64,000 nt of DNA from a virus (IMGVR_UViG_3300015214_000028:1-64000); one strand, 5' to 3'; positions 1 to 21,494 are shown, counted from the first letter of the stretch. The notes: generated by a model not told the origin, from the letters alone. Numbers and translations are program-made.

Positions 1-1521
1 AGAGCCTGTAGGACCTTGGGGGCCTGTTGGACCTTGAATACCTTGAGAGCCTGTTGGTCCTATTGGACCTTGAATACCTTCAGAGCCTGTAGGACCTTGG
101 GGACCTGTTGGACCTTGAATACCCTGAATACCTTGAGAGCCTGTGGGGCCTTGGGGGCCTGTAGGGCCTTGAATATTCCCTACGTTTTCCCAAGCACTAC
201 CACTCCAAACATAAAGGTCTCCATTAATAAGGTAGGCATCTCCCTGTGTTCCACTAGGAGGCAGTTCCAGTTCGGATTCCAGAGAATCTAAAATCTGTAC
301 CCCTGTGCCCTGTGGACCTGTAGGACCTAGAGCTCCGGTAGGGCCTGTAGGGCCTTGAATACCTTGGATACCTTGAGTACCTGTTGGACCTATTGGACCT
401 TGAATACCTTCAGAGCCTGTTGGACCTGTAGGACCTATTGGACCTTGAATACCTTCAGAGCCTGTTGGACCTATTGGACCTTGAATACCTTCAGAGCCTG
501 TAGGACCTTGGGGACCTGTTGGACCTTGAATACCCTGAATACCTTGAGAACCTGTTGGGCCTTGAATACCCTGAGAACCTGTGGGACCTTGAGGACCTGT
601 TGGGCCTTGAATATTGCCTACATTTTCCCAAGCACTGCCATTCCAAACATATAGATCTCCCTCAATAAGGTAGGCTTCTCCCACTGTACCGCTGATAGGT
701 AGCTCTAGCTCCGACTCTAAAGAGCCTAGAATGCTTACACCGGTTCCTTGAGGACCTGTTGGGCCTAGAGCACCTGTAGGTCCGGGAATGCCTTGAACAC
801 CTGTAGGGCCAATGGGGCCTGTTGGTCCCTGAATACCTTGGAGGCCTGTAGGGCCTGTAGGACCTTGAATACCCTGAAGGCCTGTTAGGCCTTGAATACC
901 CTGAGAGCCTGTAGGACCTGTAGGACCTTGAATACCCTGGATGCCTTGGGAGCCCGTTGGGCCTGTAGGGCCTAAAGCACCTGTAGGGCCTAAAGCACCT
1001 GTGGGTCCTGTAGGGCCTTGGATACCTTGAGTACCCTGAAGACCTTGAGGACCTGTTGGACCTACGGAACCTGTTGGACCTACGGAACCTGTCGGGCCTA
1101 TAACGCCCTGTACTCCCTGAACACCTTGAGCACCAGTAGGGCCTGTTGGGCCTGCAACACCTTGCACACCCTGAATGCCTTGAGAACCTGTAGGACCCTG
1201 AATACCTTGAGCACCTGTAGGGCCTATTGATCCAGTAGGCCCTACAAATCTACCAATGTTGTTCCAAACAGCTCCTTCCCAGAGCCAAAGGTCCCCTCCA
1301 ATAATGTAGCCATCACCTAAATTGTTTCCAGAAAGGGGAAGCAAACTTTGATCGGCTAAAGTACCTATAACTAAAATACCGGGACCTTGTGCCCCAGTAG
1401 GCCCAGTAGGCCCGGTCGGCCCAATATGGCCCGGAGGGCCAATCGGGCCCGGCGTGCCAGCTGTAATAAGTACTATTTCTTTAGTAACTGGGTCAACTAC
1501 AATATCTACTTCTCTAGCCAC
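1..1521 (-). CDS. collagen-like (Gly-X-Y repeat) fibre/structural protein, partial; C-terminus lies beyond the window start
   Basis: Minus-strand GTG at 1521-1519 preceded by GGAGG. Translation [47 protein letters not shown]..., then three long G-X-Y blocks (GPTG, GIQG, GVQG) separated by short non-collagenous spacers. No stop before position 1. The plus-strand ORFs 16..291, 355..654 and 1018..1230 are its antisense. Confidence 0.8.
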
Positions 1522-1888
1522 GAGTAACCTCCGGACGTAGTTTAATCTTACCCTCTAGTAATCTTACAACATACTCAGGATTATTCGTGTGAAACAATTC
1601 TAAATCGTACACGCCACCTTCTTGTACTAGTACACTAGACGTAGAAGGTAAAACAGTAACCTTAATTTCTCCGGGTAGTCCGCCTAGCTCTATCCCCCCA
1701 CCCGGATCTGAATTCAAATTTAAAAAAGCTACAGGAGAATCGAACTCTTCCCTAGCCTGCATTCGGGCGGAGAACTCTGTTAAGTCTACTGGAGTAGTTA
1801 CACCAGTATTAGTATCTTTTGTTTCCCAAATAAAAGACTTAACATAAGTTGCCCCCTTATTTATCTCTAAATCTAGTCTTCCTGCCAT
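1514..1888 (-). CDS. hypothetical structural protein (124 aa); position suggests a head decoration or connector role
   Basis: Track ORF. Sits between the capsid gene and the fibre gene and overlaps the fibre start by 8 nt (GTGGCTAG). Confidence 0.5.
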
Positions 1889-1966
1889 TTTATGTCCTTT
1901 TCAAATAAACTGCGAAGGGGGAACGAAAAAGGGGAAGCCCTAAGGCTCCCCCTTTCATGGGCTTAA

Positions 1967-3778
1967 TTAAGCAACCCAACGAGCGCAAGCAACTGCTTCG
2001 CCGTCTGTATCTGAAATCTGCTCGAAGCCCATACGTAGTGTAGCAACTAGTAAGGTTGATTGCTTCTCAACTAGATAATCTGATTCGACTGTTAGACCTT
2101 TGTAATTACCAATCATAAAGTTATTTGGATTGATAGCAATAGCAGGGTAGTTAGTTGCGATCTTAGAACCTAGCTCTCCTGATACGATAACTGGTGATCC
2201 GCCAGCCATACCGATCTGTCCACTAATAATAGTGGCTCGATCTCCAACTTTGTCCATTGTCTGGAACTCTGAATCTTCTAGAAGCTCGTAATATCCGGCT
2301 GTTGAAACGATGAAACTAACTTCTGCGGGATTTAGACCCCAAACACCTAAACGCTTACGAAGACCACGAAGTGCAGCAACAGTAAGAGTTGCATTAGTAC
2401 CAAGACTAAGAGTAGTATTGGAACCTGCAGCCTCGTACCCAGTAATACCAGTAATAGGGTCATTAGTATTACCAGCACCTAAAAGAAGCGCTTTATCGAC
2501 TGACTTAGCAGTTCTACGAATCATGGCGTCACGAATCACAGGCATTAGTGCAAGAATAGCATCCTGATCTTCTTCGTTTCCGATGAATTCTTTGGTTGCT
2601 AGCTTGTGTGCTGTGATTGTTAGGTCTTTTAGAACATGGGTCGCTGCTGAGCCCGAGCTAGCATCAGTACCATACTGAGCAGCAGTAACCCAAGTGCCGT
2701 ATCCAGCTTCTGGGTTAATTGGGAATCGAGTAACGACTCCTGGCATATTGATTTTACGGAAGAGAGGTTCAACGACTAAGCGTCTACGAATCTCTGCAAG
2801 CATGTTTGTGCTAACAATGTTTTCCCAATTTGCATTAGGAACGTGAGCACCATATTTCTCAACAATTTGCTGATAAGCTTTGGTCTCAGTTAGCCCTTTC
2901 CGGGTAGCCCGGGCCATAAGAACTGCAAGTTCTTTTTCGGCGTAGCTAACTTCATCACCATTACTGCGATCTTGAAATAGTTCTTTCTGCTTACGGAGGG
3001 CTTCAATTTCAGCAGCCTTCTCAGCAAGTTCACCACGTAGGTCTTCAATTGCTTTTGATACTGTAGTATTTTCTTCGGCAAGCCGCTTCTCAACAGTCTC
3101 TAGAAGTTGTTCTGCACCAGATTTTTCAACCTGAATACGTGCAGCTTCTGCAGCCTGCGTGGCTAGAGCTTCGTCAGCCGCTTTCTGCGCAGCAGCTGTT
3201 GCTGCGGCCGCTGCTTTTTCTGCAGCTGCGGTTACTAGAGCTTCTAGTTGTTCTTTATCCATTAATAACTCCTCTTTAAGAAATGACTTCTTAAATTCAA
3301 TTAACTCTTTTTTAGAGTTAAAACTTTTTGCAAGGTCAAATAAACTGTCTTGATTAGCTGGGACTGAGACAACAGATACCTCCAGTAACTCTAGAGCTTT
3401 AATTACGAAAATGTCAGTTGCAGAATCGTAATCAGCGTCTTTGACGTAAAAACCAATAGAGAAAGCTTTTAAAACTCCCTCTTTAATAAGCTGGTACACT
3501 TTACCAGCGGCGCTAGAAATCTTAGCAGTTAACTTTAGTCCATTTTCATCCGGCGAAATATCAACTGCCGTACCGATTGGTTCTGAGTGATTATGGAAAG
3601 CCAGAATAATTGGATTTTTTCTAAAGTTTTCTAAAGCTGCCTCATTCCAAGCGTATGATGGAACAACGTCTCCATACCTGTCTTTAGAGATAGTATTAGC
3701 GTATCCAGTAATTAACAGCTCATCATCTTCTAGCGCTTTGGCCTCGAAGTGGCCGAACGCTTTAATCATTTGTGTCAT
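1967..3778 (-). CDS. fused prohead protease (HK97/S78-like) + Ala/Glu-rich scaffold linker + HK97-fold major capsid protein
   Basis: N-terminal ~160 aa carry protease motifs (FHNHSEPIGT, LKAFSIGF, EVSVVSVPANQDS). Residues ~170-300 are an AEKAAAAATAAAQKAADEALA coiled-coil. C-terminal ~300 aa show major-capsid-like blocks (GYGTWVTAAQYG ... SGELGSKIATNYPAIAINPNNFMIGNYKG). Confidence 0.75.
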   Translation of the reverse strand: MTQMIKAFGHFEAKALEDDELLITGYANTISKDRYGDVVPSYAWNEAALENFRKNPIILAFHNHSEPIGTAVDISPDENGLKLTAKISSAAGKVYQLIKEGVLKAFSIGFYVKDADYDSATDIFVIKALELLEVSVVSVPANQDSLFDLAKSFNSKKELIEFKKSFLKEELLMDKEQLEALVTAAAEKAAAAATAAAQKAADEALATQAAEAARIQVEKSGAEQLLETVEKRLAEENTTVSKAIEDLRGELAEKAAEIEALRKQKELFQDRSNGDEVSYAEKELAVLMARATRKGLTETKAYQQIVEKYGAHVPNANWENIVSTNMLAEIRRRLVVEPLFRKINMPGVVTRFPINPEAGYGTWVTAAQYGTDASSGSAATHVLKDLTITAHKLATKEFIGNEEDQDAILALMPVIRDAMIRRTAKSVDKALLLGAGNTNDPITGITGYEAAGSNTTLSLGTNATLTVAALRGLRKRLGVWGLNPAEVSFIVSTAGYYELLEDSEFQTMDKVGDRATIISGQIGMAGGSPVIVSGELGSKIATNYPAIAINPNNFMIGNYKGLTVESDYLVEKQSTLLVATLRMGFEQISDTDGEAVACARWVA

Positions 3779-4931
3779 CTTTTGATCCTGATGGTTTAGC
3801 TGCAGAGCCAGTAATATTGGCTGGAATTCTTAGTTTATCCGATTCTGGGGAAGGGTCTTTCGGATAACGCAACTCTAGACGCGCTTCATTGGGGGTGATT
3901 ACGCCAGTATTGACTAAGGTTCCTAAATAAGCAGCCTGAATATTAAGCTCTGGCCGTAGAGCTTCTGCACCCGAGGTATCCACTGAAATGTCATAGCCGA
4001 AGTACCTTTCAAAGGCACTAACAACTAATCTAGCCAGGGGTAGAATAGTTTCAACCCACATCAGCTTTTGATTTGGAGTAATATTGGCATTATTGCCTCC
4101 AAACAGTAGAATCGGCGGTACGCCAAGTGCAAGTAAAACAGATTCATCTATTGAACGAACTGAGCCTTCAAAATCTAACTCTTTGAATTTGCCTTCTCCA
4201 AGAGCTTTAACTTCTAGACCTCCGTCTAGAATAAGTGGTCGTTTTCCGCCACGTTTCGGGTTATACTCCCGAACCCAGTTCTCAATTAAACGATCCTTGA
4301 TCTTCTGTCCTAGAACGCTAGGAGACTGGATCACTAAGCCCGGGACCGCGTTATTCTTAAAGAAATTACGCTGGAACTCTAACATTTCTCCTCTAATATT
4401 AATTAGTTCAAGAAACGTCTTAGCTCTACTAGTCCCTCTAAAGATACTGTCCGAACCGTTGTCGCTTACGGGAATGATTTCCTCAGGATTAAATCGAATT
4501 GTGGAATTGTATTCGTAATAAGCAACAAGTGTTTTCGGATCAGTAACTACTTTAACATTCACCGCTGGTAGATGGTACATAAAAGCACCATCAAAGTGAA
4601 TATAGGCGTTACCTTCTAGTATTAAATCTAGATAGATAAGCCTTTTAAATCTTTCAATATCTTGATAAGGATTAGGACTAAATTGAATTAAAGTTTCTAA
4701 TTTAGCTTTCCTAATTGACACTACGCCCACACCATTCAGTTTACTAGTAACGTCGAATCCCAGGCTAGAAGCACCGTTAACAATTAAGTCAACACCGCGT
4801 CGAACAACTGGAATCTCGTTATAGGCTGAAACATGGCTAGCATAGCGGCGCGCGGTCGAGTACACTTCCCCGCTATCGCGGGAAATGACAGATTGCGCGG
4901 GGTTTAATTTAGTTCGCAACCATTGCAGCAT
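3762..4931 (-). CDS. portal protein (HK97-family size, 389 aa)
   Basis: Size and position between terminase/HNH and the protease-capsid gene; portal-like composition. Confidence 0.6.
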   Translation of the reverse strand: MLQWLRTKLNPAQSVISRDSGEVYSTARRYASHVSAYNEIPVVRRGVDLIVNGASSLGFDVTSKLNGVGVVSIRKAKLETLIQFSPNPYQDIERFKRLIYLDLILEGNAYIHFDGAFMYHLPAVNVKVVTDPKTLVAYYEYNSTIRFNPEEIIPVSDNGSDSIFRGTSRAKTFLELINIRGEMLEFQRNFFKNNAVPGLVIQSPSVLGQKIKDRLIENWVREYNPKRGGKRPLILDGGLEVKALGEGKFKELDFEGSVRSIDESVLLALGVPPILLFGGNNANITPNQKLMWVETILPLARLVVSAFERYFGYDISVDTSGAEALRPELNIQAAYLGTLVNTGVITPNEARLELRYPKDPSPESDKLRIPANITGSAAKPSGSKDDTND

Positions 4932-5274
4932 GCTTCTCTCTTTTTTTCTCTACCCATGCTGCTTGCTTCTTTGCAGTACCTAGGGCAGGTTTAAGCCCAT
5001 AAACTTTATGCAATAAAGCATGATCGCTTTTGCATAGAGTTACGACTTCTAAATATATTTCTGAATGATGTTCGGAGATAAATTCATCTCTAAAATCTAG
5101 AACATTTTCTTCAGAATAGCCCTTTTTCTTACACCATTTGTTAAACAAAGCAGTTAAGCTATTATAATGGTGCAACTCTAACAACTCACTAGTACCACAA
5201 ATCACACAGGAAGAATCCTTCTCATATGCGGACTTGCAGCGGTCGCGAATGTATTTTACGGGTAAACGTTTCAT
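4909..5274 (-). CDS. HNH endonuclease, packaging-associated
   Basis: CVICG ... ELHHYNS ... LCKSDHALLH = CxxC...HH...N...H. Lies between portal and TerL. Confidence 0.65.
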   Translation of the reverse strand: MKRLPVKYIRDRCKSAYEKDSSCVICGTSELLELHHYNSLTALFNKWCKKKGYSEENVLDFRDEFISEHHSEIYLEVVTLCKSDHALLHKVYGLKPALGTAKKQAAWVEKKREKHAAMVAN

Positions 5275-5320
5275 TTTCCTATATTCTACTAGACCCAGAA
5301 AATATTTTCAACCAAATTTT

Positions 5321-6622
5321 TCACACTGAAGAAATATCCCCTCTATACGTATAAAGTGCGTATCTAAGAGCATCGGCCATGTGTGAATAACGATCATGCA
5401 CAGGTTTTTGAACTATAAGTCCTTCACGAGGGTCCCAGCGATACTGATCTAAGCAAGCTAAAGTCTCTTTACAATGGGGCGCTACAAATAAACGACCTTG
5501 CTCTACTAAAGTCTGTACAAAAGCAATACCTTCTAGAACAGCTTTATTAGCATTTACAGTTGAGATATCGTACTCCATTGCTAGATCATACCTGAACTGC
5601 TGCGCTGAAGAATCTACAAATATATATTCAACACCATACTTCTCTTCTAAAGCTTTAATCGCATTAGCATGTACGGCAGTAGTAGCTTCTGACTTGTAAT
5701 ACTCATCAACTACATAAAACTTATCATCAACACAACTAATAACCGCTCCAGCAGTAGGATCCCTAAAGCCAAAGTCAACACCCATAATCACTTCGTCTAA
5801 AACGGGTGTTTCAGCAATATAGTCTGGAGAAAAGTTAAAGATCTGTCCTTCGAACACTGAGAAGGAAGCTTCGTACTCTTGCTCGAACTCACCTTTAGAC
5901 ATGCTAAGTCTAGCTTCTTCAATATCCGCTAAAGAAGCTCGGGGATTCTCTCTCCAATCACAGTGTAAAGAAACCCATTGTGGGTAAGTATCTAAAAATC
6001 CTCTATCAAAGAATCTAGAGAACCAATTCATTTTACCACGGGGTGTAGAGATGAAGATAGCTTTAGCACCTGGTTTATCTAGGGTAGGTCGCAGAGCTAC
6101 ATTAAAAGCTTCTTCTCCCGCAGTCGATAGTGCTGCTTCGTCAAATAGAATTAAATCGTATGAGCGACCTACTACAGAATCAACCTGCGAAACTGAGCCA
6201 GCACGAACGGTAGAACCGTTACTAAGCTCTAAAACTCTATCTTTGGCGTTATCCTTTTCAACTTCTAAAGCAAATGCTTTCAAGTAGCGACGCTGTAATT
6301 CAAAAGAAATACTAGAAAGAGAATAATTGGGCGACATAATTAATACATGACAGCCCGGGATTAAGCATATTAGTTGTGCAATCATATTACCAGCTGTAGT
6401 CTTCCCAACACGTCTAGAAAAAGCAGCAACTATAAAGCGATATTTGGGATTATTAACAGCATTAATTAAAGCAATTTGTGGTCTATTAGGATCACCACCT
6501 AAAACGCCTTTTTCTTTTGCTAAAGGGATATATTTCTTGATAGGAAGTTTTATAAACCTTTCTTCTAGTGGAAACTCTTGAAACTCATCTGCTGAAATAT
6601 CCGGTCTACTTATTTTCAACAT
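5321..6622 (-). CDS. terL: terminase large subunit
   Basis: Walker A SRRVGKTT; 433 aa; C-terminal nuclease-like region; gene position. Confidence 0.8.
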   Translation of the reverse strand: MLKISRPDISADEFQEFPLEERFIKLPIKKYIPLAKEKGVLGGDPNRPQIALINAVNNPKYRFIVAAFSRRVGKTTAGNMIAQLICLIPGCHVLIMSPNYSLSSISFELQRRYLKAFALEVEKDNAKDRVLELSNGSTVRAGSVSQVDSVVGRSYDLILFDEAALSTAGEEAFNVALRPTLDKPGAKAIFISTPRGKMNWFSRFFDRGFLDTYPQWVSLHCDWRENPRASLADIEEARLSMSKGEFEQEYEASFSVFEGQIFNFSPDYIAETPVLDEVIMGVDFGFRDPTAGAVISCVDDKFYVVDEYYKSEATTAVHANAIKALEEKYGVEYIFVDSSAQQFRYDLAMEYDISTVNANKAVLEGIAFVQTLVEQGRLFVAPHCKETLACLDQYRWDPREGLIVQKPVHDRYSHMADALRYALYTYRGDISSV

Positions 6623-7058
6623 CTAAAAGCTTTCCCATCAATTCCCCGTAATTAGTTCCTACAAAGGGATTATTAATTTGAATATTTGTCTGAGTTTTAG
6701 GGCCTGCTGCCAGTTTGGTAGCTATGTTCATTTCATCCATTTTCATTTTGTGCACTAAAGCTAAAATATCCATAATATCTTTAGTAGATCCAATATCTGC
6801 TTCCTGTAATTCCTCCAGCTTTTTCTCAACTATACTGTCTACAATTTCTGCAAACTTGAAACGATTTCTATAACCAGACTCAAAATAAATTCTATCAATA
6901 TAGCTCTTGACTTCTGGTAAGTCTAGATATTGATTCACCTGTTCCGGGTGAATGCCTAGTTCTCTAGCGGTCTGTTCCACGCTTCTAGTAAGGAGATACG
7001 TATTAGCGATTTCTAGCTCTTCTGGGGAAATAGGCACAATAGTATTTGGATTTGCCAT
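6606..7058 (-). CDS. terS: terminase small subunit (HTH DNA-binding)
   Basis: ARELGIHPEQV HTH-like motif immediately upstream of terL. Likely start is the ATG at 7058 (MANPNT); the track's TTG at 7094 lies inside the promoter -35. Confidence 0.55.
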   Translation of the reverse strand: MANPNTIVPISPEELEIANTYLLTRSVEQTARELGIHPEQVNQYLDLPEVKSYIDRIYFESGYRNRFKFAEIVDSIVEKKLEELQEADIGSTKDIMDILALVHKMKMDEMNIATKLAAGPKTQTNIQINNPFVGTNYGELMGKLLDVENK

Positions 7059-7065
7059 ATTTTGA

Positions 7066-7094
7066 AGTATAACACTGTCAATAAAAAATTTCAA
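7066..7094 (-). promoter_or_regulatory. sigma70-like promoter for terS/terL (-35 TTGAAA, 17-bp spacer, -10 TATACT) giving a leaderless or near-leaderless transcript
   Basis: Reverse complement reads TTGAAA ttttttattgacagtgt TATACT tcaaaat ATG. Confidence 0.5.
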
Positions 7095-7129
7095 CTACTT
7101 TTTTCGTACTGGGCCCGTTGTTGCTTCTT

Positions 7130-7222
7130 GAGTGCTCTGAGCCCCGGGTTACCTTCCAATATTTTCTTAAAGTTGTACGCGGGGCCACCAATTACTCAGC
7201 GTCGCTGAGCCCCGGGTTACTC
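7130..7222. repeat. two direct ~65-bp repeats, each containing CTGAGCCCCGGGTTAC and AATTTTCTTAAAGTTGTACGCGGGG
   Basis: Read directly at 7130-7160 and 7200-7260. The core is the same 17-mer that recurs at 12187-14181. Confidence 0.8.
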
Positions 7223-7286
7223 TGTAAATTTTCTTAAAGTTGTACGCGGGGGAGGGCGGTGCGGCGGTGCCGATAGAGCGAGTCTA

Positions 7287-7322
7287 TCAACCGCCCATGC
7301 CCGATAGGGTGAGCCTATCGGG
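7287..7322. repeat. perfect 15-bp-stem inverted repeat (CCCATGCCCGATAGG gtgagc CCTATCGGGCATGGG) just downstream of the minus-strand two-gene operon
   Basis: Read directly. Preceded by a second palindrome GATAGAGCGAGTCTATC. Confidence 0.8.
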
Positions 7323-7337
7323 CATGGGTCTTGCCTG

Positions 7338-7634
7338 CTACACCTGGCGCGCAGGCGCGAAGTTCGCGAGGTTCAGCACGTCCAATCGATCATGTTCGGG
7401 CCGGGCAAGTGCATCGACCAAACGAGCGAGGAATTCCGTCGCGCTGATGGTAACGTGCCCGCCAGACACAGGAAAATCTACTTGCACGCTAACGCGCTCG
7501 ATCGCGCCTGCGCGCTCTACTGCGCGATTCAATTGCCTGACAAACGAGCGCGCAGCGATGAAGGTCATACCCTGCCCGAACGGGCGCGGCTGGCCTACGG
7601 GCTTTCCGGCCGCGAAGATGGTAATCTGTGTCAT
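7338..7634 (-). CDS. hypothetical protein (98 aa) in a ~60% GC patch
   Basis: Track ORF; follows the upstream ORF with a 5-nt gap. Confidence 0.45.
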   Translation of the reverse strand: MTQITIFAAGKPVGQPRPFGQGMTFIAARSFVRQLNRAVERAGAIERVSVQVDFPVSGGHVTISATEFLARLVDALARPEHDRLDVLNLANFAPARQV

Positions 7635-7639
7635 GCTGG

Positions 7640-7918
7640 TTACTCCATCGAATAATCGGCACAGTAGCGCAGCGCGCTAATGACCCGTTCCACAATCTTG
7701 GCCTCCCTGACTGCCTTTACCGCACCCGCATACTCGCCTGCGCTAGCATCCGTGGACATGCTCAGCAGGGTTTCTTCATGAAAGCGCACGTCGGACTCAG
7801 CCTTTGCTTGGGTAGAGTACAGAAGGTCTTCTACGCGCTGGCGCGCGGCGTTCAGTTCCTCATAAGCGACTTCACCCAGACCGAACATATGAGCTACGAA
7901 TGTGACAGTTGCCTTTTG
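7640..7918 (-). CDS. hypothetical protein (~93 aa; start ATG at 7918 with RBS GGAGGTAGG)
   Basis: The reverse complement of 7921-7935 gives GGTGGAGGTAGGAAA before the ATG. The track's longer 170-aa version runs back into AT-rich non-coding DNA. Confidence 0.45.
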   Translation of the reverse strand, partial: QKATVTFVAHMFGLGEVAYEELNAARQRVEDLLYSTQAKAESDVRFHEETLLSMSTDASAGEYAGAVKAVREAKIVERVISALRYCADYSME

Positions 7919-8357
7919 CATTTTCCTACCTCCACCCAATGCAGTGAAACCGGTCGGTTTCCTCGTTTGCTGCATCAGAGACTTAACTATAGCAAAGCAT
8001 TTTAACCCTGCAAAGCGGAAAATTGTAACAAATTGTAACTGTTGTTTTTTCACCACACGCGCCCGATGGGCACTCTTTCCCACTAATAACATTATACACG
8101 CTAGAAAAACCGTGTCAAGCAAAATATTTTTGCTCGTTCCGAAAATGAACATGTCTGATTTTGCCTAGTCTGTTTTACTGCCCTGGTCAAGCATTATTTT
8201 CTGCCTAGCATGTAACGATGTTATCGTCAAGACATATCGCGCCGAAAACACAAAACCTGGTAGCTGTCAAGTATTCCGCACTAAAATGCAAGGGTATTGC
8301 ATAGCATCTAAAAAGTATGCTAGACTATGGGTTATTGCATTAAATAGGCTATTCACC

Positions 8358-8741
8358 ATGCTAAAGAATCTTGACCTTGAAACCTTCTACCGTGCTGTAT
8401 CGCACTATTGCGAAGTTTTGCAGATTGATGAAAGTATGGTAGAATTCGAGTTTAGCAATCTTCGGCGCAATGCTAAATTATGGGGCGCTTGCATCAATGA
8501 CATTGATTGTGTTACAATCGAGATTGATAAAAGTTTGTCGCGCAAAAACACGCTAAAAACTCTAGCGCATGAGCTAGTGCATGCAAAACAGTTTTTAGAA
8601 GGTGAGCTAGACTGTATCGGGGATTATTGGATTTGGCACGGTGAAATTGTGTTAGAATCCTATGAGAATGAACCGCACGAAATAGAAGCTAACAGTCTCG
8701 AAAACGTGCTATACTCTAGTTTTATGGAAGCGAACCGATGA
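8358..8741 (+). CDS. HExxH zinc-metallopeptidase-like protein (ImmA/SprT-like; paralogue of 26173..26571)
   Basis: LAHELVHAKQF motif; ATG at 8358 in the track-ORF frame. Confidence 0.5.
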   Translation: MLKNLDLETFYRAVSHYCEVLQIDESMVEFEFSNLRRNAKLWGACINDIDCVTIEIDKSLSRKNTLKTLAHELVHAKQFLEGELDCIGDYWIWHGEIVLESYENEPHEIEANSLENVLYSSFMEANR

Positions 8742-9217
8742 AAATTGCAATTTTCGATCTGGACGAAACCGTTATTAATTCGTCGCATCGCACGCCGAAT
8801 AATCCCGATGGCACCCTTAACCTTGATGCTTACATTGCAAGGCATACACCGGAAAACGTGAGGAAAGACAAGGTTTTGCCGCTTGCCGAAACTATGCGCA
8901 GACTGTATAATATGGGCTGGCAGATTTTTGTTCTGACTGCTAGGGATATGAAACCTTGCGACTATGAATACCTCGCAAGGCATAATCTACCTTATCATCG
9001 CATTTTCTCGCGCGATCAAGCAAAGCCTGAACATTATAGGCTTTCCGATGGCGAATATAAAAAGCGCTGGATTCAAAAGCTGCTAAATCTTCGCCAATAC
9101 CGGAGCGCTTATGTTATAATGTTTGACGATAGCAGCAAGGTTAAATCTGCGCTGCGTCGATTCTTTCCGGTACTTTGCGCGCATAAGGTAAATGCGAAAA
9201 TCGGAACGGTTAAATAG
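8738..9217 (+). CDS. HAD-superfamily phosphatase (5'-deoxynucleotidase or PNK-phosphatase-like; resembles T5 dmp)
   Basis: N-terminal FDLDETV (DxDxT motif); 159 aa. Confidence 0.6.
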   Translation: MKIAIFDLDETVINSSHRTPNNPDGTLNLDAYIARHTPENVRKDKVLPLAETMRRLYNMGWQIFVLTARDMKPCDYEYLARHNLPYHRIFSRDQAKPEHYRLSDGEYKKRWIQKLLNLRQYRSAYVIMFDDSSKVKSALRRFFPVLCAHKVNAKIGTVK

Positions 9218-9283
9218 CACTACCGTTAAAACGTGCTATAATGGCTCTTCCTGATTGACGATAAACGAACTGAGGGAAACAAA

Positions 9284-10849
9284 ATGATCGAAGCTAAAAT
9301 TGCACTGCGCATTCGCGGCGCTTTCCGGTTGCGCAAACCCGAAAGCATTGATTCTGCTATTGCCGACGTTGCCGAGGAAATTGGCGCGGATGTTAACGCG
9401 GTTCGGGAAGTTTACAATACCGAACGTGCACGGTTGGACGCGGCACGGATCGAGCGGATTCGGAAGGCGGAAAGCAAACCCGTTTCGGGCGGCGCGTTGC
9501 GCCCGGATTATTCTGCGGAAGATTACCCTGGTCCAATCATCGTCACCGCCGCGCAAAATAACACGGAAGTGGCAGAAGCTTTCTGGGATAACCTTGTCGG
9601 GTATGCGTCCAGCATTGGGGCTAAAATCATTGTCGCACCGATTCTGTATAATAAATCGGCATGGAATCAGCCCGATGACATGACTGGACAAGATATTTAC
9701 TTTGACCCCAAGGTCAAACCCTATATGCGCGATGATCGGTTTACCGTTCACGGTGTAGCGGTATTGGCTAACGCTCATGTTTTGCCGACGTCCAAGAATC
9801 CGTTGTCGGGTTTTGAATCGGCCACGGGTGCTGGACAGTCTATCGTCATCCCGGCCAGTAAAATCTCTCTTAAAACGATGCCACGCCTTAAGGGTGAACC
9901 GCTGAAAATTGTTCAATCTACGGGCACGGTTACGGTATGCAACTATGTCCAGCGCAAGGCCGGAACGGTATCCGAGTTGGAGCACAATTACGGGTTTACC
10001 GTGATTGAATCCGGCGGAAAAGTTCGATCGGTAGAATGTATGAATCCTGATGCCGGCGGGTTTTTTGATTTTGACGGGGAGCATGTAAACGAACAAGGCA
10101 TTGAGTACCCTGATAACCCGGCTGCGCTGGTTTTTGGAGATATTCACGCCGAAAAGCTGCCGCTGGAACGGCTTAATGCAATCTCGGCACTAGCGCGAAA
10201 GGTCAATCCGTGCAATGTCATTTTCCACGATATTCTAGACTTTTCGAGTCGGAACCATCACAATCGGGAGTCTAGTCTCTTCCGCTTTGTGGCGGATTCT
10301 ACGGGCCAGTCAGTGGAAAGCGATATTGAAAAGGTCGCTAACGTGCTAGACTGTTTCCCAAGCTATGCTCCTATTGTGGTTGACTCCAACCATGACAGAG
10401 CGCTTGAACGTTGGCTGGATGAGGCAGATTATCGCGAGGACTCACAAAACGCGATTTTCTTTTTGGAATTGCAGCTTGCACGATACCGTGCGGCAAACTG
10501 TGGACAAGAGCCTATTAACCTGCTAAAATACGCTTTGACCAAGCGTTTCGGCAGGGATTTTAATGCTACTTTCCTGAAGCCTGATGAAAGCTGCAAGGTA
10601 GAAGGTATTGAATGCGGCAATCATGGCGACCGTGGCCCTAACGGCGCTAGGGGAAGTTTGCAAGCATTCCGGGCAATTGGCGAATCTATGGTGATCGGAC
10701 ACTCCCATAGTCCGGGCATTGCCGGCAAAGTGTATCAGGTCGGGGTTTCGGGCAGCCTTGAAATGGGGTACAATGTTGGACCGTCGTCTTGGGCGCATGC
10801 TCACTGTATCATTTTCGCCAATGGACAACGGCAAATGATTTTCGAGTAA
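9284..10849 (+). CDS. large protein with a C-terminal calcineurin-like (Mre11-type) metallophosphoesterase domain; resembles T5 pre-early A1
   Basis: Motifs VFGDIHAE, HDILD, DSNHD, ECGNHGDRG, VIGHSHSP; 521 aa. Confidence 0.55.
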   Translation: MIEAKIALRIRGAFRLRKPESIDSAIADVAEEIGADVNAVREVYNTERARLDAARIERIRKAESKPVSGGALRPDYSAEDYPGPIIVTAAQNNTEVAEAFWDNLVGYASSIGAKIIVAPILYNKSAWNQPDDMTGQDIYFDPKVKPYMRDDRFTVHGVAVLANAHVLPTSKNPLSGFESATGAGQSIVIPASKISLKTMPRLKGEPLKIVQSTGTVTVCNYVQRKAGTVSELEHNYGFTVIESGGKVRSVECMNPDAGGFFDFDGEHVNEQGIEYPDNPAALVFGDIHAEKLPLERLNAISALARKVNPCNVIFHDILDFSSRNHHNRESSLFRFVADSTGQSVESDIEKVANVLDCFPSYAPIVVDSNHDRALERWLDEADYREDSQNAIFFLELQLARYRAANCGQEPINLLKYALTKRFGRDFNATFLKPDESCKVEGIECGNHGDRGPNGARGSLQAFRAIGESMVIGHSHSPGIAGKVYQVGVSGSLEMGYNVGPSSWAHAHCIIFANGQRQMIFE

Positions 10850-10963
10850 AAGTGGAACGGGGTGATTGACTCATCCCAGTCACTAGGTTATACTTCTTTC
10901 ATCGGTTCAGCGAATAGCGCGACGTTGAACCGATACCCTAAACCGCGCTAAAAGGGCTTTATC

Positions 10964-11308
10964 ATGAGCAAAGAAAAAGTGGCAGCGTATTCAATCGAGC
11001 AAACTTCGGAACTGGTCGAGGCTTACAAAGCCGACCCGACTCAAGAGACTGTTGCGATTTTTGCGGAACGGTTCGGAAAATCTGCCCGGTCGGTTATCGC
11101 GAAGCTTACTCGGGAAGGCGTGTATATCAAAAAGACTTACACCAGCAAAACGGGTGAACCTGTTATCAAAAAGGATGACATTGCCGACAAGATCGGTGCG
11201 CTTGTCGGGCTGGCGGATTCCGAAGCTGATTCGCTTGCGAAAGCTAATAAATCCGCGCTGAAGAAAATTTATGCACGGCTTACCGGATCGGGCGCGGATT
11301 CCGAATAA
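10964..11308 (+). CDS. small HTH-motif protein (A2-like); member of a paralogous family
   Basis: Motif ARSVIAKLTREGVYIKK is shared with 15894..16238, 37469..37828 and the three repeats in 40736..41472. Confidence 0.5.
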   Translation: MSKEKVAAYSIEQTSELVEAYKADPTQETVAIFAERFGKSARSVIAKLTREGVYIKKTYTSKTGEPVIKKDDIADKIGALVGLADSEADSLAKANKSALKKIYARLTGSGADSE

Positions 11309-11364
11309 CCTGTAGCATACCGGGGTGCATCCAGCACCCCGGTTAATCAAAAGGTAACGCTAAA

Positions 11365-11673
11365 ATGTCTCGAAAATACCAAAGCTTTAGATATCGAACA
11401 GCTATGTGCAGCATTGCTCAGGCTAATGGTGCGGTAGCTTGTCGCAAGGGTTTGACCGTAGCAATCGTTCCATGCCTTGAAGGCGCTTTCAATCCGAAGT
11501 TCTATAAGGTAGCAGTTGCTCACTGTAGTGACTCGGATGAATTTGACTATAGTCGCGGCGTGATTATTGCAGAAAATCGGCTTTGTTGCGACAACTTTAT
11601 CACGTTGCAAAACCCTTTTCCCGGTTCACCGCCACAACGCGCAGCGGAGTATTTTGCCTCGATGCTAGTCTAG
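11365..11673 (+). CDS. hypothetical protein (102 aa)
   Basis: Track ORF with RBS AAAGG; followed by a terminator. Confidence 0.4.
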   Translation: MSRKYQSFRYRTAMCSIAQANGAVACRKGLTVAIVPCLEGAFNPKFYKVAVAHCSDSDEFDYSRGVIIAENRLCCDNFITLQNPFPGSPPQRAAEYFASMLV

Positions 11674-11684
11674 GTTCCTAGCGT

Positions 11685-11716
11685 AAGCCCCAATTCTAAT
11701 TGGGGCTTTTCTTTTG
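11685..11716 (+). terminator. rho-independent terminator
   Basis: AAGCCCCAA ttctaa TTGGGGCTT followed by TTCTTTTG. Confidence 0.7.
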
Positions 11717-11751
11717 CCCGGTACTGTAAATGCTTCGCATTCGCCAGATGA

Positions 11752-11983
11752 AAATGATTCTCATTTGCTCGCGCCGATTTTACACCTGGTTGGCCAGCAC
11801 GTCAAGCCCGGGTACTCTAAACGAGAATGATTCTCATTCAGGCGCCGATTTTACACTACACTAGAACACTTGTCAAGCCGTGTTACAATTAACACGGGGT
11901 GTAGCATATGGGGCAAACTGGTACGCTTTTTGCTTTCGTTAAACGCGAACGATTCTCATTCTCAAACGCGAACGATTCTCATT
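11752..11983. repeat. four operator-like palindromes (A)AATGATTCTCATT(T/C), two followed by GCGCCGATTTTACAC
   Basis: Copies at about 11752-11766, 11825-11839, 11948-11960 and 11971-11983. Confidence 0.75.
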
Positions 11984-12020
11984 CTCATTTCTTTTTGCCA
12001 AAATACCCGAAGGGTATTTT

Positions 12021-12140
12021 GCGCCCGCGAGAGTGAGAAATCAACGCCAAATTTTCCGTGTCGCCGCGCCCGCGCGAGTGAGAAATCAATGACAAAATTC
12101 CGCGCCCGCGCGAGTGCGAGATCAACGTGAAATTTTACAT
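12021..12140. repeat. three tandem ~38-bp direct repeats (GCGCCCGCG(C)GAGTG(A/C)GA(A/G)ATCAA(C/T)G..AAATTTT), iteron-like
   Basis: Read directly. The track ORFs 11870..12130 and 12127..12318 are most likely non-coding repeat DNA. Confidence 0.75.
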
Positions 12141-12184
12141 GCTAGAGTGCAAAGTCAAGTCGAGTTTTCCCCCGCTAAAGCAAC

Positions 12185-12610
12185 ATAACCCGGGGTGCAG
12201 CGATCATAGCAATCATAGCAATCCTAGCAATCGCGGCAACCACAGCAACCACAGCAAGCCTCACACTAAAGCAGCCCTAGCAACTTCCCGTAGCCCTCAC
12301 AGTAGCCCAAGCCGCTAAAGACTTTACGCCCCGGGCTACTCTATGAGCCCTCTAAGCCCGCTAAAACCTCTGAGCCCCGGGTTAAAAAATAGCCCGGGGT
12401 GTAGCGATTGATTCAATGCCCCAAATCTAAACAGTAACCCGGGGCTCAGCGATTTTAGTAAGCTAAAAAATATCCCAGACTAAAGAAGTAGCCCGGGGCT
12501 CAACGATTTTAGCAAGCTAAATGCACTCAAAGAACTAAAAAGTAACCCGGGGTTCAGCAATTGAACCGGCTTCAGCAATTGAACCGATCTTTGAGCCCCG
12601 GGTTACTTTG
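12185..12610. repeat. cluster of at least eight copies, in both orientations, of a 17-25-bp element GTAACCCGGGG(C/T)(T/G)(C/T)AGC(G/A)ATT, plus tandem 9-mers (TAGCAATC / CAACCACAG) at 12196-12262
   Basis: Copies near 12187, 12337, 12369, 12390, 12434, 12488, 12542 and 12591. Confidence 0.85.
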
Positions 12611-12960
12611 TGAAGGTGACTAAAAATTATTTTTGGCCAAAAAATTGAATTTTAAATTGTATTACGCAGGCGTTTTTTGCCGACTTTATATGGTAATCAA
12701 TAAATTAATTGATTTAAAACTCAGTAATTGAAAAAGAACTCTTAGCTTAAAAAAGGGGGGGATAAATTGTCCAGTAACAACAACGGAGCAAAAAATTTCA
12801 GCGCTAAATTTCAAAAAATAACGAAAATTTTTTTAAAAATAGTCGAAAAAAGCTGAAAAAACTTTGAAATTTGAATTAATTAAACTAAAAAGGCAGTAGT
12901 CTAATTTGAAATAAGTTAATTTAAAAAAGAGACTAGTCTGAAAAATACCCCCTGTCTAAT
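12611..12960. other. extremely AT-rich non-coding tract (candidate DNA-unwinding element or spacer) with no ORF above 60 aa
   Basis: Long A/T runs, e.g. aaaaattatttttggccaaaaaattgaattttaaattg. Confidence 0.6.
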
Positions 12961-12961
12961 A

Positions 12962-13090
12962 AGTAACCCGGGGCTCAAAATCTGAAAAAATGCTAAAAAT
13001 TTATTAATTCTTTTGTAATCTAATTAACCCGGGGCTCAGAGGTTGAAAAGGTTTTAATAGCTAAAGAAGTAACCCGGGGCTCAGCAATTC
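12962..13090. repeat. three more copies of the GTAACCCGGGGCTCA element
   Basis: Near 12962, 13026 and 13069. Confidence 0.85.
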
Positions 13091-13272
13091 AATAAACTAA
13101 GAAATCCCCTAAAATTGGGAGACCGGGGTTACAGTGGTTAGCTTATTAGTTGTATACCGTTTAATACGTTTAGTAATGAAAAAACGCGTAGTATACGTCA
13201 AAAGAAAAAGTCAAGCAAATTTTTAGTTATTACATTTTAAATATGTATAGGTTCCCCCAAGGTTAGATTGCC

Positions 13273-13390
13273 AGGAAAATCGCCTTAATATCGCAAGAAG
13301 AATTTTTTGCGCGGGCTCTTTAATAGCACCGGCGGGGGGACCCCCCGGCTATTAGCCCTCGCAAAATTCTTTTGCTCTAGCGATTTTCCT
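13273..13390. repeat. ~115-bp imperfect palindrome (AGGAAAATCGC ... GCGATTTTCCT) centred on a G7/C6 hairpin CCGGCGGGGGGACCCCCCGGC
   Basis: Read directly. Lies between convergent gene blocks. Confidence 0.75.
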
Positions 13391-13460
13391 TAATTCTGTC
13401 GAATTTCGTCAATCTATCCTTTATTATACCACATTTTTTTTTTAATTTCAACTCGATTTT

Positions 13461-14042
13461 TCATTCTGGCTTAAAATCCCAGTCTGTAGGGCTTAAAATC
13501 ATTTTAGGATGCCTGATATCCGGATGATAGATCCACATCTCTAGTAACATGTATCTCAACATCTTAGGAAGTTTATCGAAGAGTGTTCCAGTCTTTTCTA
13601 GTGAACCGTACTTTTTAGGGTCTGGCATTTGTGATCTATATTGTTCTAGCTTGTCTTTAGGCGGGATTGGGTATGGCATTAGTAGCCAAGTTAGCGACTC
13701 TGTTAGGAAAGTTGCTAGCTGGTTATTTTTTACCCAATCGTTATATTTGAAGTCGTAGTAGCTCATAAATAGCGGAACACCAGAAGAAAGTTCTGGTTTG
13801 TAAGTCATAGCAGGCTTTAGTAATTTTGAGCGTGGAATTACTGCGACTTGTTCTACTAGACTGATTAGGTTTTCTGGTGCTTTAGAATACCACTCTTCTG
13901 CGTTTGGGGTGTCTAGTGGTACGGTTTTTACTACCGATTCTAGCCAAGGAAAGAATTTTGGATCTTCCTTTACTTTCTTTTGTAGATCTTTATCTAGCTC
14001 TAGGAGCTTTATGTTGCCTTGTACGAAATATTCAATTTTCAT
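13461..14042 (-). CDS. hypothetical protein (193 aa)
   Basis: Track ORF. Confidence 0.5.
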   Translation of the reverse strand: MKIEYFVQGNIKLLELDKDLQKKVKEDPKFFPWLESVVKTVPLDTPNAEEWYSKAPENLISLVEQVAVIPRSKLLKPAMTYKPELSSGVPLFMSYYDFKYNDWVKNNQLATFLTESLTWLLMPYPIPPKDKLEQYRSQMPDPKKYGSLEKTGTLFDKLPKMLRYMLLEMWIYHPDIRHPKMILSPTDWDFKPE

Positions 14043-14074
14043 TTTAGTTCCTTAGGGGTGTAGCTGGTGTAGCG

Positions 14075-14181
14075 AGTAACCCGGGGTGTAGCGGGTTTAG
14101 CGATTGCAGTGGTTGCTTGAGTGTAACCCGGGGCTCAGCAATAGTCTGGGGTGTAGCAAGTGCTACACCCCGGGTTACAGT
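14075..14181. repeat. three more CCCGGGG-element copies; the last sits in a perfect hairpin GGGGTGTAGC aagt GCTACACCCC
   Basis: Read directly; upstream of the minus-strand gene 13461..14042. Confidence 0.8.
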
Positions 14182-14828
14182 TAGCAATTAACAATTTCCC
14201 ACCCAAAGTTATCGTCAGTGTAGCCTCTAGGATTTGATACTACTCTAGTGTTATTTATAGTGTAATCACACTTAAAGTGGGTGTGTCCATGAATCCAAAG
14301 CTTTGGCTCATGGTCTAGATAGGGGCTATACGGATTAAAGATATCAGTATAGAAAGCTTTGCTTAGAGGAGCTGAACGATACTCTGGTGCTACAGAAAGA
14401 ATACTAGGAGCATGATGAGTGATAAACACGTCAGCATTAGAAGTGTTTAGAAACTCTAGATCCTTTTGGAATTCTTCATTCCATTTTAGCTTTTTAATGT
14501 ACCTAAAATCATTCATGCCTTCTTTAGCTACTAGATAGGCCATAGGGTTACTAAGGTCTGTCCAAAGAGTAGCACAAGCAAATCTTACTCCTTTAAACTC
14601 AAAGATTTCTCTATTCTTTATTAGTGGGTGGTACTCATCATACTTACGACCATAGTACTCATGATTACCAGCTACATAAAGAATTGGCCCATCAAACTCT
14701 AGCGGGAGCCAAGGATTGCTTAGTGAGCAAATATCCCCCGCGAGCACGCAAATATCCGCCGGAGGCGGAAGCTTGCGCATTGGGGTAAATTCGGTGTGCA
14801 GATCTGATGCGTATGTAATTGTTAGCAT
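14181..14828 (-). CDS. calcineurin-like metallophosphoesterase (Ser/Thr-phosphatase-like)
   Basis: Motifs DLHTEF, LAGDICS, VAGNHEYYG, FITHHAP, IHGHTHF. Confidence 0.65.
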   Translation of the reverse strand: MLTITYASDLHTEFTPMRKLPPPADICVLAGDICSLSNPWLPLEFDGPILYVAGNHEYYGRKYDEYHPLIKNREIFEFKGVRFACATLWTDLSNPMAYLVAKEGMNDFRYIKKLKWNEEFQKDLEFLNTSNADVFITHHAPSILSVAPEYRSAPLSKAFYTDIFNPYSPYLDHEPKLWIHGHTHFKCDYTINNTRVVSNPRGYTDDNFGWEIVNC

Positions 14829-15047
14829 TTTTCAGATCCAAAACTTATTACATTCATTTTAATTTCTCCAAGGTTATAATATATTATAGCCGTTTAAAAA
14901 GAAAAAGGCAAGCTGTAAATAGCTTGCCTTTAGTTGGGTTAAAGAGGTTTTCAGTTTAGGGTGTCGTCATCATCATCATCTTCATACTCACCCTCAAAAA
15001 TTTCTTCCTCTATATTTTGCAAACACCCGTATATCTCACATATAGGA

Positions 15048-15233
15048 TTAGAGCATAGACAGATCATAGTCGCACTTCCTAATAATAAAGGATTCGTCAT
15101 CTAGAATTTCAAGTTCTAGTATGTCCCTTTCTTTCCACCCTAGCTGCTCAATAATCTCATCTGGTATTGGAAGAATTAATTCTCCGCTAGAATCAACCTC
15201 TAGTTCTACGTAAATTTCATTCATAAGCATCAT
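15048..15233 (-). CDS. hypothetical small acidic protein (61 aa)
   Basis: Track ORF. Confidence 0.35.
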   Translation of the reverse strand: MMLMNEIYVELEVDSSGELILPIPDEIIEQLGWKERDILELEILDDESFIIRKCDYDLSML

Positions 15234-15714
15234 CCGTTCTAAACGCTAATTCTGGCATACCCACAGCGGTTGGCCCACTCGGACGGTACCCGTCAAAATA
15301 GGGCTTGATTTTCCACCCGAATCTAAAATAAAGCCTAAACTTAGAGGTTTCTAGAATAATAAAGAAAAAGTCAAATGCCTTACCGTTGCTATAAAGAATG
15401 AAAGGGCCCTTTTCTTTTCTAGAAATATTGTCTAAATCTTTAGTTGCTAGTTTGAACCTTGCACCATATGCTTTATTTCTCCATAACCACCAAACCCTGG
15501 CAGCATAGCTTCCGTATTTCTCTTGAATTTTTAGAAGCTGTTTTTCTCCTCCAAAATCAGTTAAACTAGTATCTGGAGTACCCATCCAAGTAAAGGGTGG
15601 AAGTAGCTTACCGTTTTTTACTCTTAGTGCTGCTACAGGTGCTAGGGCTAGCGATACTGCTTGAGCAGTTAAGCTAGCGGCATTAACTACTAGTGCTTTT
15701 AGAAATGGTTTCAA
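15217..15714 (-). CDS. hypothetical protein (165 aa)
   Basis: Track ORF. Confidence 0.4.
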   Translation of the reverse strand: MKPFLKALVVNAASLTAQAVSLALAPVAALRVKNGKLLPPFTWMGTPDTSLTDFGGEKQLLKIQEKYGSYAARVWWLWRNKAYGARFKLATKDLDNISRKEKGPFILYSNGKAFDFFFIILETSKFRLYFRFGWKIKPYFDGYRPSGPTAVGMPELAFRTDDAYE

Positions 15715-15901
15715 TTTTTACCTCCAACTCTTCTATCTTTTTTAGACATACCTCAATTGCTTGAGCAGCATTATTAGCATGCTCTGCTAGTGCTTGAATA
15801 GCTTTTCCATGGTCTAGAATACACTCACTTTGTTGACTAGTAAGTTTGGAAAAGGCGTCTAGTACACTGTGTACTTCTTCTTTTAGTTTTTTGTTAAACA
15901 T
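15683..15901 (-). CDS. hypothetical coiled-coil protein (72 aa)
   Basis: Track ORF. Confidence 0.35.
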   Translation of the reverse strand: MFNKKLKEEVHSVLDAFSKLTSQQSECILDHGKAIQALAEHANNAAQAIEVCLKKIEELEVKIETISKSTSS

Positions 15902-16238
15902 TAACTACCTTAAGGGACTCAATAACTTCAGGATCAATGGCTTTTAGCAAGTTCCTTAAAGTTTGTTTTGGTGCTTTCTCTAACCCTTCTAGATCTGCTG
16001 AAATCAGGGCTAGAGAGTTAGCGATCAGTTCTACGTATTCATCTTTACTGGTGGGGATTTCTCCAGTTTTAGTAGTATACTTTGGTTTTTTGTAAATTCC
16101 TTCCCTAGTAAGTTTTGCAGCTACTTGTCTAATGGTTCTGTCCCATTTTTTAGCAAGTAGTTCCACAGTTCTAGGGTAGGGATTCTCTGTGTAAAGCTTT
16201 ATATAGTCTAGTGTTTCTTCGTCTGAATATCGTTGCAT
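15894..16238 (-). CDS. HTH-motif family protein (paralogue of 10964..11308)
   Basis: VAAKLTREGIYKKPKYTTKTGE closely matches VIAKLTREGVYIKKTYTSKTGE. Confidence 0.5.
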   Translation of the reverse strand: MQRYSDEETLDYIKLYTENPYPRTVELLAKKWDRTIRQVAAKLTREGIYKKPKYTTKTGEIPTSKDEYVELIANSLALISADLEGLEKAPKQTLRNLLKAIDPEVIESLKVVNV

Positions 16239-21202: not shown

Positions 21203-21230
21203 TGCTGCGCCGAGTCAAGGAGGTGAACAA

Positions 21231-21458: not shown

Positions 21459-21494
21459 GTCAATTCCTAAGCGCTACGAGAAGGAGAGGAACAA

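Follow-up and report, generated by a model that had tools for sequence, protein, structure and literature searches.

The subject of this analysis is a short repeated element in the DNA stretch IMGVR_UViG_3300015214_000028:1-64000, which we refer to as the window (64,000 nucleotides in all) and which, judging from its sequence, belongs to a distant, uncultured T5-like phage. The element has the 25-bp consensus (A)AGTAACCCGGGG(C/T)(T/G)(C/T)AGCGATT. All 16 copies sit in three gene-free gaps between positions 7132 and 14182, in which no gene was called in three independent assemblies. Cluster a (7132-7224) consists of two minus-strand copies that lie upstream of the small terminase gene terS; cluster b (12181-13089) holds 11 copies (8 plus, 3 minus); and cluster c (14072-14182) holds three (plus, plus, minus), between the first two early genes.

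Copies and distribution of the motif

We scanned 76.9 kb of the source contig, comprising the window with 8 kb to its left and 4.8 kb to its right, with a 25-nt position weight matrix (PWM). The scan yielded 16 copies scoring 27-38.5 bits, with the next best match at 17.8 bits and a maximum of 18.0 bits over 100 shuffles, and nhmmer recovered the identical set (E ≤ 2e-5). The 17-mer GTAACCCGGGGCTCAGC, with up to three mismatches allowed, gave 14 matches where 0.06 were expected, all of them inside 7136-14178. No copy was found by the PWM before any other gene or operon in the DNA scanned. A preliminary description of the window had reported at least 16 copies of such an element in non-coding DNA, as well as an excess of its CCCGGG core (more than 25 sites for about 5 expected). 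The element is real by these measures, and the excess is confirmed by a count of 33 CCCGGG sites in the window compared to 5.6 ± 2.3 in dinucleotide-preserving shuffles (shuffle maximum 12). The core itself is less confined than the motif: outside the clusters CCCGGG is still about 3-fold enriched (16 sites versus about 5 expected), often as CCCGGGG, and the extended motif is absent there.

In cluster a, copy 1 (GAAGGTAACCCGGGGCTCAGAGCAC; 7132-7156, minus strand, PWM 29.3 bits, nhmmer E 8.8e-6) and copy 2 (CAGAGTAACCCGGGGCTCAGCGACG; 7200-7224, minus, 34.9 bits) each adjoin one perfect 24-nt repeat, ATTTTCTTAAAGTTGTACGCGGGG (family D15; 7161-7184 and 7228-7251), the first of which forms a 68-bp unit with copy 1. 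Cluster b opens with copy 3 (12181-12205, plus, 30.6 bits), followed by copies 4 (12319-12343, minus, 27.1 bits) and 5 (12365-12389, minus, 27.3 bits), the latter standing head-to-head with copy 6 (12385-12409, plus, 31.5 bits). The best copy, copy 7 (AACAGTAACCCGGGGCTCAGCGATT; 12430-12454, plus, 38.5 bits), is succeeded at 54-bp intervals by copies 8 (12484-12508, plus, 34.8 bits; family D3) and 9 (12538-12562, plus, 37.0 bits). Copies 10 (12586-12610, minus, 35.2 bits) and 11 are the left and right arms of a perfect 19-bp inverted repeat (pair I12), and between these two lies an AT-rich spacer of 348 bp (12611-12958, 27-32% GC) that splits the array into eight and three copies. Copies 11 (12959-12983, 30.4 bits), 12 (13020-13044, 33.1 bits) and 13 (13065-13089, 36.8 bits) are all on the plus strand. 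Cluster c contains a GTGTAGC variant, copy 14 (14072-14096, plus, 28.1 bits), together with copies 15 (14119-14143, plus, 32.3 bits) and 16 (14158-14182, minus, 29.5 bits). The last overlaps the perfect 10-bp-stem hairpin described earlier, which we could confirm as a DNA fold at 14148-14171 (GGGGTGTAGC-aagt-GCTACACCCC).

Mean identity is 70% among the 25-nt cores and only 28-31%, as for random sequence, among the 30-nt flanks, and for this reason the family is not a segmental duplication; 54-bp tandem units are common to only the three adjacent copies at 12430-12562. The spacing within clusters is irregular (17-370 bp). With this spacing, copies in both orientations and cores that are only 70% identical, the clusters do not form a CRISPR array, as the preliminary description had also judged, and the annotation showed no cas genes. 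The palindrome in a single copy is 6 bp only; nested inverted pairs result in strongly structured DNA (predicted fold z = -6.9).

Two weaker nhmmer matches were considered as degenerate copies and discarded. The first (45512-45540, E 1e-3) encodes a conserved APPGY, which we take to be motif A of DNA polymerase A, and is therefore a coding coincidence; the second (39831-39852, E 4e-3) is located inside the ligase A gene and probably arose by chance.

Gene context and likeness to T5 Repeat Region 3

The gene terS (6606-7058, minus; phrog_3802, E 1.9e-38; Pfam PF26823, T5_Terminase_small) encodes a small terminase of the T5 type and is the last gene of the late block ahead of the pre-early module. 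Its sigma-70-like promoter (7066-7094, minus; TTGAAA-17-TATACT, preceded by TG) sits 37 bp downstream of the closest motif copy, such that cluster a spans 37-130 bp upstream of the -35 element. The late block is on the minus strand and further comprises a head protease-capsid fusion, the portal protein, the nicking endonuclease Phage_T5_Nicking_endo (PF26848) and TerL. The gene order head-portal-nickase-terL-terS followed by pre-early genes is that of the junction at the right terminal repeat of T5. T5-type Pfam matches in the window are T5_Terminase_small, Phage_T5_Nicking_endo and Phage_T5_dNMPase, and 15 tRNA genes lie beyond the pre-early module.

A megablast search with the region and with the first 20 kb retrieved no close phage relatives from GenBank, and a search of IMG/VR returned one weak A1 relative only, with no match to the motif. 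The window is 100% identical to metagenome contigs of several samples, the longest of which is ENA ERZ27247376 k141_1857324 (86.9 kb).

The pre-early genes dmp, A1 and A2 occur together on the plus strand. They encode a T5-type deoxynucleoside-5'-monophosphatase (8738-9217; Pfam PF26880, phrog_415), an A1-like DNA transfer protein (9284-10849; phrog_1745, E 4e-147; 37-39% identical to A1 of Demerecviridae) and an A2-like DNA-binding protein of 114 aa (10964-11308), a candidate binder of the motif. The A2-like match is weak (phrog_1725, E 8e-5) but covers the full length, and the gene is in the conserved position; for comparison, T5 A2 itself hits this family at E 4e-52. A direct BLASTP comparison of the two proteins was not significant, and the assignment comes from the profile match only. 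The A2-like orthologue in L009, a phage contig from the same sample, has a weak match to Pfam PF26822. A second, paralogous member of the A2 family (phrog_1725) is encoded among the early genes of the window (15894-16238, minus), and in the uncultured relative L012 the A2-like gene likewise occupies an early-gene position.

Beyond the A2-like gene, a hairpin resembling an intrinsic terminator (11685-11708, plus) marks the end of the pre-early operon and the beginning of a gene-free, untranslated region of 1.75 kb (11709-13460), which is rich in repeats and palindromes (at least five repeat families). It contains four palindromic GAGAAT-S-ATTCTC(ATT) boxes (family D6; 11746-11986), of the same box family as the DRE/DRB boxes of T5 (GAGAATCATT), where boxes of this kind occupy 9557-9709. 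These are followed by a hairpin, AAAATACCC-gaa-GGGTATTTT, and a GCGC site with a putative minus-strand nick at 12024/12025 (12000-12025 in all), three direct repeats of 36-45 bp, GCGCCCGCG(C)GAGTGAGAAATCAAC (family D5; 12016-12141, plus), and cluster b. A further repeat family of about six 9-bp tandem units (AGCAATCAT / AGCAACCAC) occupies 12203-12256. An imperfect palindrome centred on G6/C6 (13273-13395, about 120 bp; DNA fold -42.8 kcal/mol, z = -7.7) lies just past the point where the first early gene ends.

The GCGC site coincides with breaks in the assemblies. Four contigs from three samples, each 100% identical to the window, end at 12022, 12024, 12044 and 12055; in one sample two contigs abut exactly at the GCGC (12021-12024), and no long exact repeat accounts for the break. 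The minus strand at 12024/12025 reads GG/GCGCA, in agreement with the consensus that the T5 record gives for its nicks, 5'-NPu pGCGCN. Its relative position is also that of the 7.9% nick of T5 (9748/9749), past the boxes and the palindrome and before the first DRD copy. A T5-type nick on the minus strand is thus probable; alternatively, the contig ends possibly reflect a double-stranded physical end of the genome.

The preliminary description had proposed the terminal-repeat and injection-stop repeats of T5 for comparison, and this turned out to be the appropriate one, as the array lies at the position of Repeat Region 3 and the flanking landmarks are common to both phages. Repeat Region 3 of T5 is a 1.2-kb untranslated region at the right end of the left terminal repeat; it harbours the injection stop signal together with many repeats and palindromes, nine DRD repeats among them (Davison, bioRxiv 10.1101/866236). 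The DRD family was named by Davison; its sequence, GTGCAAATCCGAC, and the positions of its copies were found in the present analysis. In the T5 record, the pre-early open reading frames (ORFs) and their terminator are followed by DnaA-box repeats and, at 9534-9722, by boxes of the GAGAATCATT type; next come a palindrome of 16 bp, the major nick (9748/9749, beside GCGC), six GTGCAAATCCGAC copies (9753-9974), three further copies (10306-10490) and then early genes on the opposite strand. The end of the left terminal repeat, at 10219, falls inside the gap between the two parts of this array (9975-10305). In the window the order is terminator (11685-11708), boxes (11746-11986), hairpin (12000-12020), GCGC, the three 36-45-bp repeats, eight motif copies, the 348-bp AT-rich gap, three motif copies, the 120-bp palindrome and minus-strand early genes. 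Because the order of landmarks matches, the GTAACCCGGGGCTCAGC family is the positional counterpart of the DRD repeats.

Both arrays consist of a multi-copy motif of 13-25 bp (9-10 copies in T5, 16 here) with irregular spacing, in untranslated DNA past the pre-early genes, preceded by GAGAAT-S-ATTCTC boxes and a GCGC site that fits the nick consensus; a gap of about 250-350 bp divides each array into two parts, and early genes on the opposite strand come next. The motif sequence, however, is unrelated: GTGCAAATCCGAC does not occur in any of the loci with the sequence of this phage, and the GTAACCCGGGGCTCAGC family takes its place. Whereas the DRD copies are on one strand only, those in the window face either way and pair up as nested inverted repeats, and additional clusters lie beside terS and in the spacer that follows the first early gene. 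The direction of the dmp-A1-A2 operon differs as well: its transcription runs towards the array here and away from it in T5. Finally, the DnaA boxes of T5 (TTWTNCACA; IRD'/IRC') have no equivalent: none occurs at 7000-14400, and the whole window has 4 where 5.6 are expected.

Other T5-like phages have arrays at the same positions. GTGCAAATCCGAC is common to T5, Klebsiella phage KpGranit (genus Sugarlandvirus) and Vibrio phage Dax. The KpGranit array has five copies, a gap and four copies, and the terminal-repeat end derived with PhageTerm (10100) is inside the gap. In L012 (A1 43% identical), 17 copies of the 15-bp motif CTGCAACTTAGGGTC occur in both orientations, against 0.28 expected, over a span of 80-11052 around the boundary of pre-early and early genes. 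As in the window, dmp-A1 is followed there by boxes (GATTCTCATT) and by the motif copies, which reach into the first early genes; unlike in the window, several copies fall within called ORFs, and the motif sequence bears only a weak resemblance (ACCC...GCT.CAGC). L009 (A1 52% identical, same synteny) has other repeat families. Upstream of its terS (7573-7805) there are four tandem-like copies each of two 18-19-bp motifs, TGTTAAAAATTTAGTACC and TAAGCACCTATTRCGRCTT, at the exact position of cluster a and beside a flank conserved with the window, and a gene-free region of 3.2 kb (12219-15423) contains many repeat families, including a 17-bp unit in 12 copies. L006 and L007, relatives with 82-86% identity, are uninformative on the motif, since their contigs end where the repeat region begins.

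The positions of the arrays are thus conserved, and the motif sequences are lineage-specific, which is the pattern expected of binding sites that co-evolve with a cognate protein. The GAGAAT-S-ATTCTC(ATT) box is a conserved feature of the untranslated DNA past the pre-early genes, even among very distant T5-like phages: it is common to the window, T5 (L001), L006 (342-418, 4920-4957), L011 (13371-13468), L012 (4196-5035) and PR1. Several of the T5 boxes, for example TGAGAATCATTATCA with one mismatch, resemble the Fur-box 7-1-7 consensus, and the protein binding these boxes could be a host metalloregulator.

A possible role at the terminal-repeat boundaries and its alternatives

Taken together, the motif copies are probably protein-binding sites of some kind. 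With rather less confidence, and a little short of even, we favour the explanation that the array is this lineage's counterpart of the T5 DRD repeats, with sites of about 25 bp for a sequence-specific, likely phage-encoded protein at the edges of the pre-early module. That these sites would mark the terminal-repeat boundaries, for the cutting of ends and for starting and stopping packaging on concatemers, is a more tentative proposal. The preliminary description had listed, among several candidates, binding sites of a phage protein that acts in packaging or at the injection stop, and this part of it remains the best reading, by position and analogy only.

The proposal can be set out as follows. 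Assemblers collapse long terminal repeats, and in T5 the late block precedes the right terminal repeat; the most economical reading of the window is therefore that 7.1-13 kb would represent a long direct terminal repeat, collapsed in the assembly between late and early genes. Such a repeat would start in the gap at 7095-7260, where cluster a lies, and its right end is predicted in the AT-rich spacer (12611-12958), because the mapped ends in T5 and KpGranit fall in the gap of the array. A phage protein, the small terminase as first candidate and the A2-like protein as second, would bind the motif, and the bound sites would mark where ends are cut and where packaging starts and stops on concatemers. 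Boundary marking is favoured since the mapped repeat end in T5 and in KpGranit has array copies on either side, and since cluster a sits where the left boundary must be, beside terS.

Recognition repeats for small terminases are known at packaging sites such as the R sites of lambda cosB, pacL/pacR of SPP1 and P1 pac. These likewise consist of several short repeats, often in both orientations, beside terS and the site where ends are formed. They differ from the window in that most motif copies here are 5 kb from terS, and both TerS binding and the cleavage site are putative.

Several points weigh against a boundary-marking counterpart of DRD. In this phage the terminal repeat is a prediction from synteny with the right-terminal-repeat junction of T5, and its boundaries are putative. 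In T5 the left boundary of the repeat is free of DRD copies, and the presence of the same motif at both boundaries is therefore not a rule of the family. T5-type arrays are all on one strand, unlike the copies in the window; Dax has only four GTGCAAATCCGAC-like copies, and L011 and PR1 showed no comparable multi-copy motif in the regions examined. Cluster c, beyond an early gene, is left unexplained by a role in defining ends. DRD has no assigned function in T5 (Davison, bioRxiv 10.1101/866236; bioRxiv 10.64898/2026.04.02.716235), and hence the analogy transfers position but not mechanism. TerS and the A2-like protein should be seen as candidate binders.

The array is best filed as an unrelated multi-copy motif in a known repeat-array position, at the boundary of first-step transfer and terminal repeat in T5-like phages. 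That untranslated DNA rich in repeats closes the 10-kb terminal repeat of T5 was recognised as early as the 1980s, and the role of its repeats, the injection stop and the cutting of the terminal repeat are still unexplained. A distant relative that keeps the boxes, the nick-consensus site and the two-part array, and at the same time swaps in an unrelated motif and adds copies on the terS side, adds one independent data point in favour of selection on the array itself. Lineage comparison also offers a route to the binding protein, even though the present result is a comparative annotation and not a new mechanism. A bolder version, which we think rather unlikely, is that the motif clusters define both ends of the long terminal repeat, and hence the first-injected segment, and that the motif of each lineage co-evolved with one phage protein. 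If true, it would explain how T5-type terminal repeats and the boundary of two-step injection are specified, and natural motif swaps (T5/KpGranit/Dax, this phage and L012) would allow the binding protein to be found by covariation.

In the foremost of the alternatives, the array would be part of a signal for injection stop or second-step transfer: bound by the A2-like protein together with A1, or else by a protein of the virion or the host, it would halt DNA entry past the pre-early genes and release it later. The array is just downstream of dmp-A1-A2, in the region named iss (injection stop signal) in T5, and its nested inverted copies form the strongly structured DNA described above. Moreover, A2 is an essential DNA-binding protein whose target is not established (bioRxiv 10.64898/2026.04.02.716235), and the A2-like gene adjoins the array. 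Against this, the first-step-transfer shear point of T5 (around 9618) is among the DRE boxes and thus left of the DRD copies, which makes the conserved boxes the better iss candidate; the DnaA-box pairs proposed as central in T5 are absent here; and the copies adjoining terS are unexplained unless the genome ends differ from the T5 arrangement. An injection-stop role for the motif is accordingly one that we consider unlikely, if less so than the explanations below.

Operator or enhancer sites for a phage regulator that switches pre-early, early and late expression would account for cluster a, 37-130 bp upstream of the -35 element of the terS promoter, and for cluster c in the spacer between two early genes. 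Suitable regulators would be an A2-like protein or a D5-like protein encoded at 40699-41472 (phrog_323, E 4e-43), which has a helix-turn-helix (HTH) domain of the sigma-70 region-4 type. Eleven of the 16 copies, however, are in a 900-bp stretch without a nearby gene start, and no other gene or operon is preceded by a copy, so that we find this explanation doubtful. Phage-specific promoter or terminator elements, also suggested previously, are not supported: 14 of the 16 copies are away from gene starts, and there is neither a T-run nor an Rfam match. As structured RNAs the copies were likewise rejected, with only sub-threshold miRNA-like hairpin matches in Rfam (E 0.05-0.5).

The eight and three repeats in both orientations, around an AT-rich spacer bounded by a perfect 19-bp inverted repeat, are reminiscent of replication-origin iterons, the 17-22-bp initiator-binding sites that surround an AT-rich unwinding region in plasmid and phage origins. 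The 348-bp spacer would be that region here. No initiator gene adjoins the array, though, no DnaA boxes occur in the region, and clusters a and c would be additional and unexplained. The location is also atypical, as T5 origins lie near the genome centre and not in the terminal repeat (Davison, bioRxiv 10.1101/866236). An origin at this locus is very unlikely on these grounds.

Still less probable is a non-protein-mediated or selfish element, that is, cruciform or hairpin repeats or a miniature mobile repeat spreading in non-coding DNA. The inverted pairs do form strong predicted hairpins and the copies are limited to non-coding DNA, but single copies have a 6-bp palindrome only, the units have no terminal inverted repeats or target duplications around them, and their flanks are unrelated. 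The motif is not repeated in other genomes or contigs scanned, and the fact that T5-like phages keep analogous arrays in the same place speaks for a function. A host or mobile repeat (repetitive extragenic palindrome, miniature inverted-repeat transposable element or uptake sequence) was rejected in the same way: the exact 16-mer gave single scattered matches, consistent with chance, in 36 bacterial-genome stretches and 74 metagenome stretches, and no match in IMG/VR.

Scarcely credible, finally, is the suggestion that the copies are targets of a CCCGGG-specific methyltransferase or restriction system. It draws on the CCCGGG core, on the enrichment of CCCGGG elsewhere in the window and on a genuine C5-methylase-like fragment encoded at 26797-27363. 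With 188 aa, however, this protein is too short for a complete C5 methylase. Its match to PF00145 (23.5 bits) involves residues 31-104 alone and is limited to positions 45-110 of the 324 in the profile, in the N-terminal part of C5 cytosine methylases. A motif whose conservation is asymmetric and spans 25 bp, far beyond CCCGGG, cannot be explained by such a fragment. The partition role that had also been raised finds no counterpart in the gene content, as no par genes were seen.

Other features of the window

The base composition of the window is uneven. A GC island at 7250-7900 (58-62%, in a genome of about 40% GC) begins exactly after cluster a and its second 24-nt repeat, where GC content rises at once from about 40% to about 60%, and contains two minus-strand ORFs without a family match; a second island extends from 20000 to 22000 (56% GC), and the whole pre-early module (9250-12400) is at 47-55% GC. 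On the minus strand, near-consensus sigma-70 promoters were identified at 11777-11876 (TTGACA-17-TAAAAT and TTGACG-17-TAAAAT), aimed back into the end of the plus-strand pre-early operon, as well as a sigma-70 promoter with a 12/12 match at 8118-8091.

In the late block, the prohead protease and the major capsid protein are apparently fused in one ORF of 603 aa (Peptidase_S78 and Phage_capsid; 1967-3778, minus). Short-period coding repeats of the GGACCT.. and GGCTACGGC.. types, at 440-530 and around 19880, coincide with the ends of Logan contig L004.

Two other genes are interrupted. That for the family A DNA polymerase breaks off within motif A and resumes after an insert of 1.26 kb (gene parts at 44028-45560 and 46819-47496). 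The insert carries an unannotated ORF of 344 aa (45750-46784) and looks like an intron or an insertion of the homing-endonuclease type. The helicase gene at 47953-49668 (ResIII/DEAD and Helicase_C) is interrupted by a HINT/intein domain.

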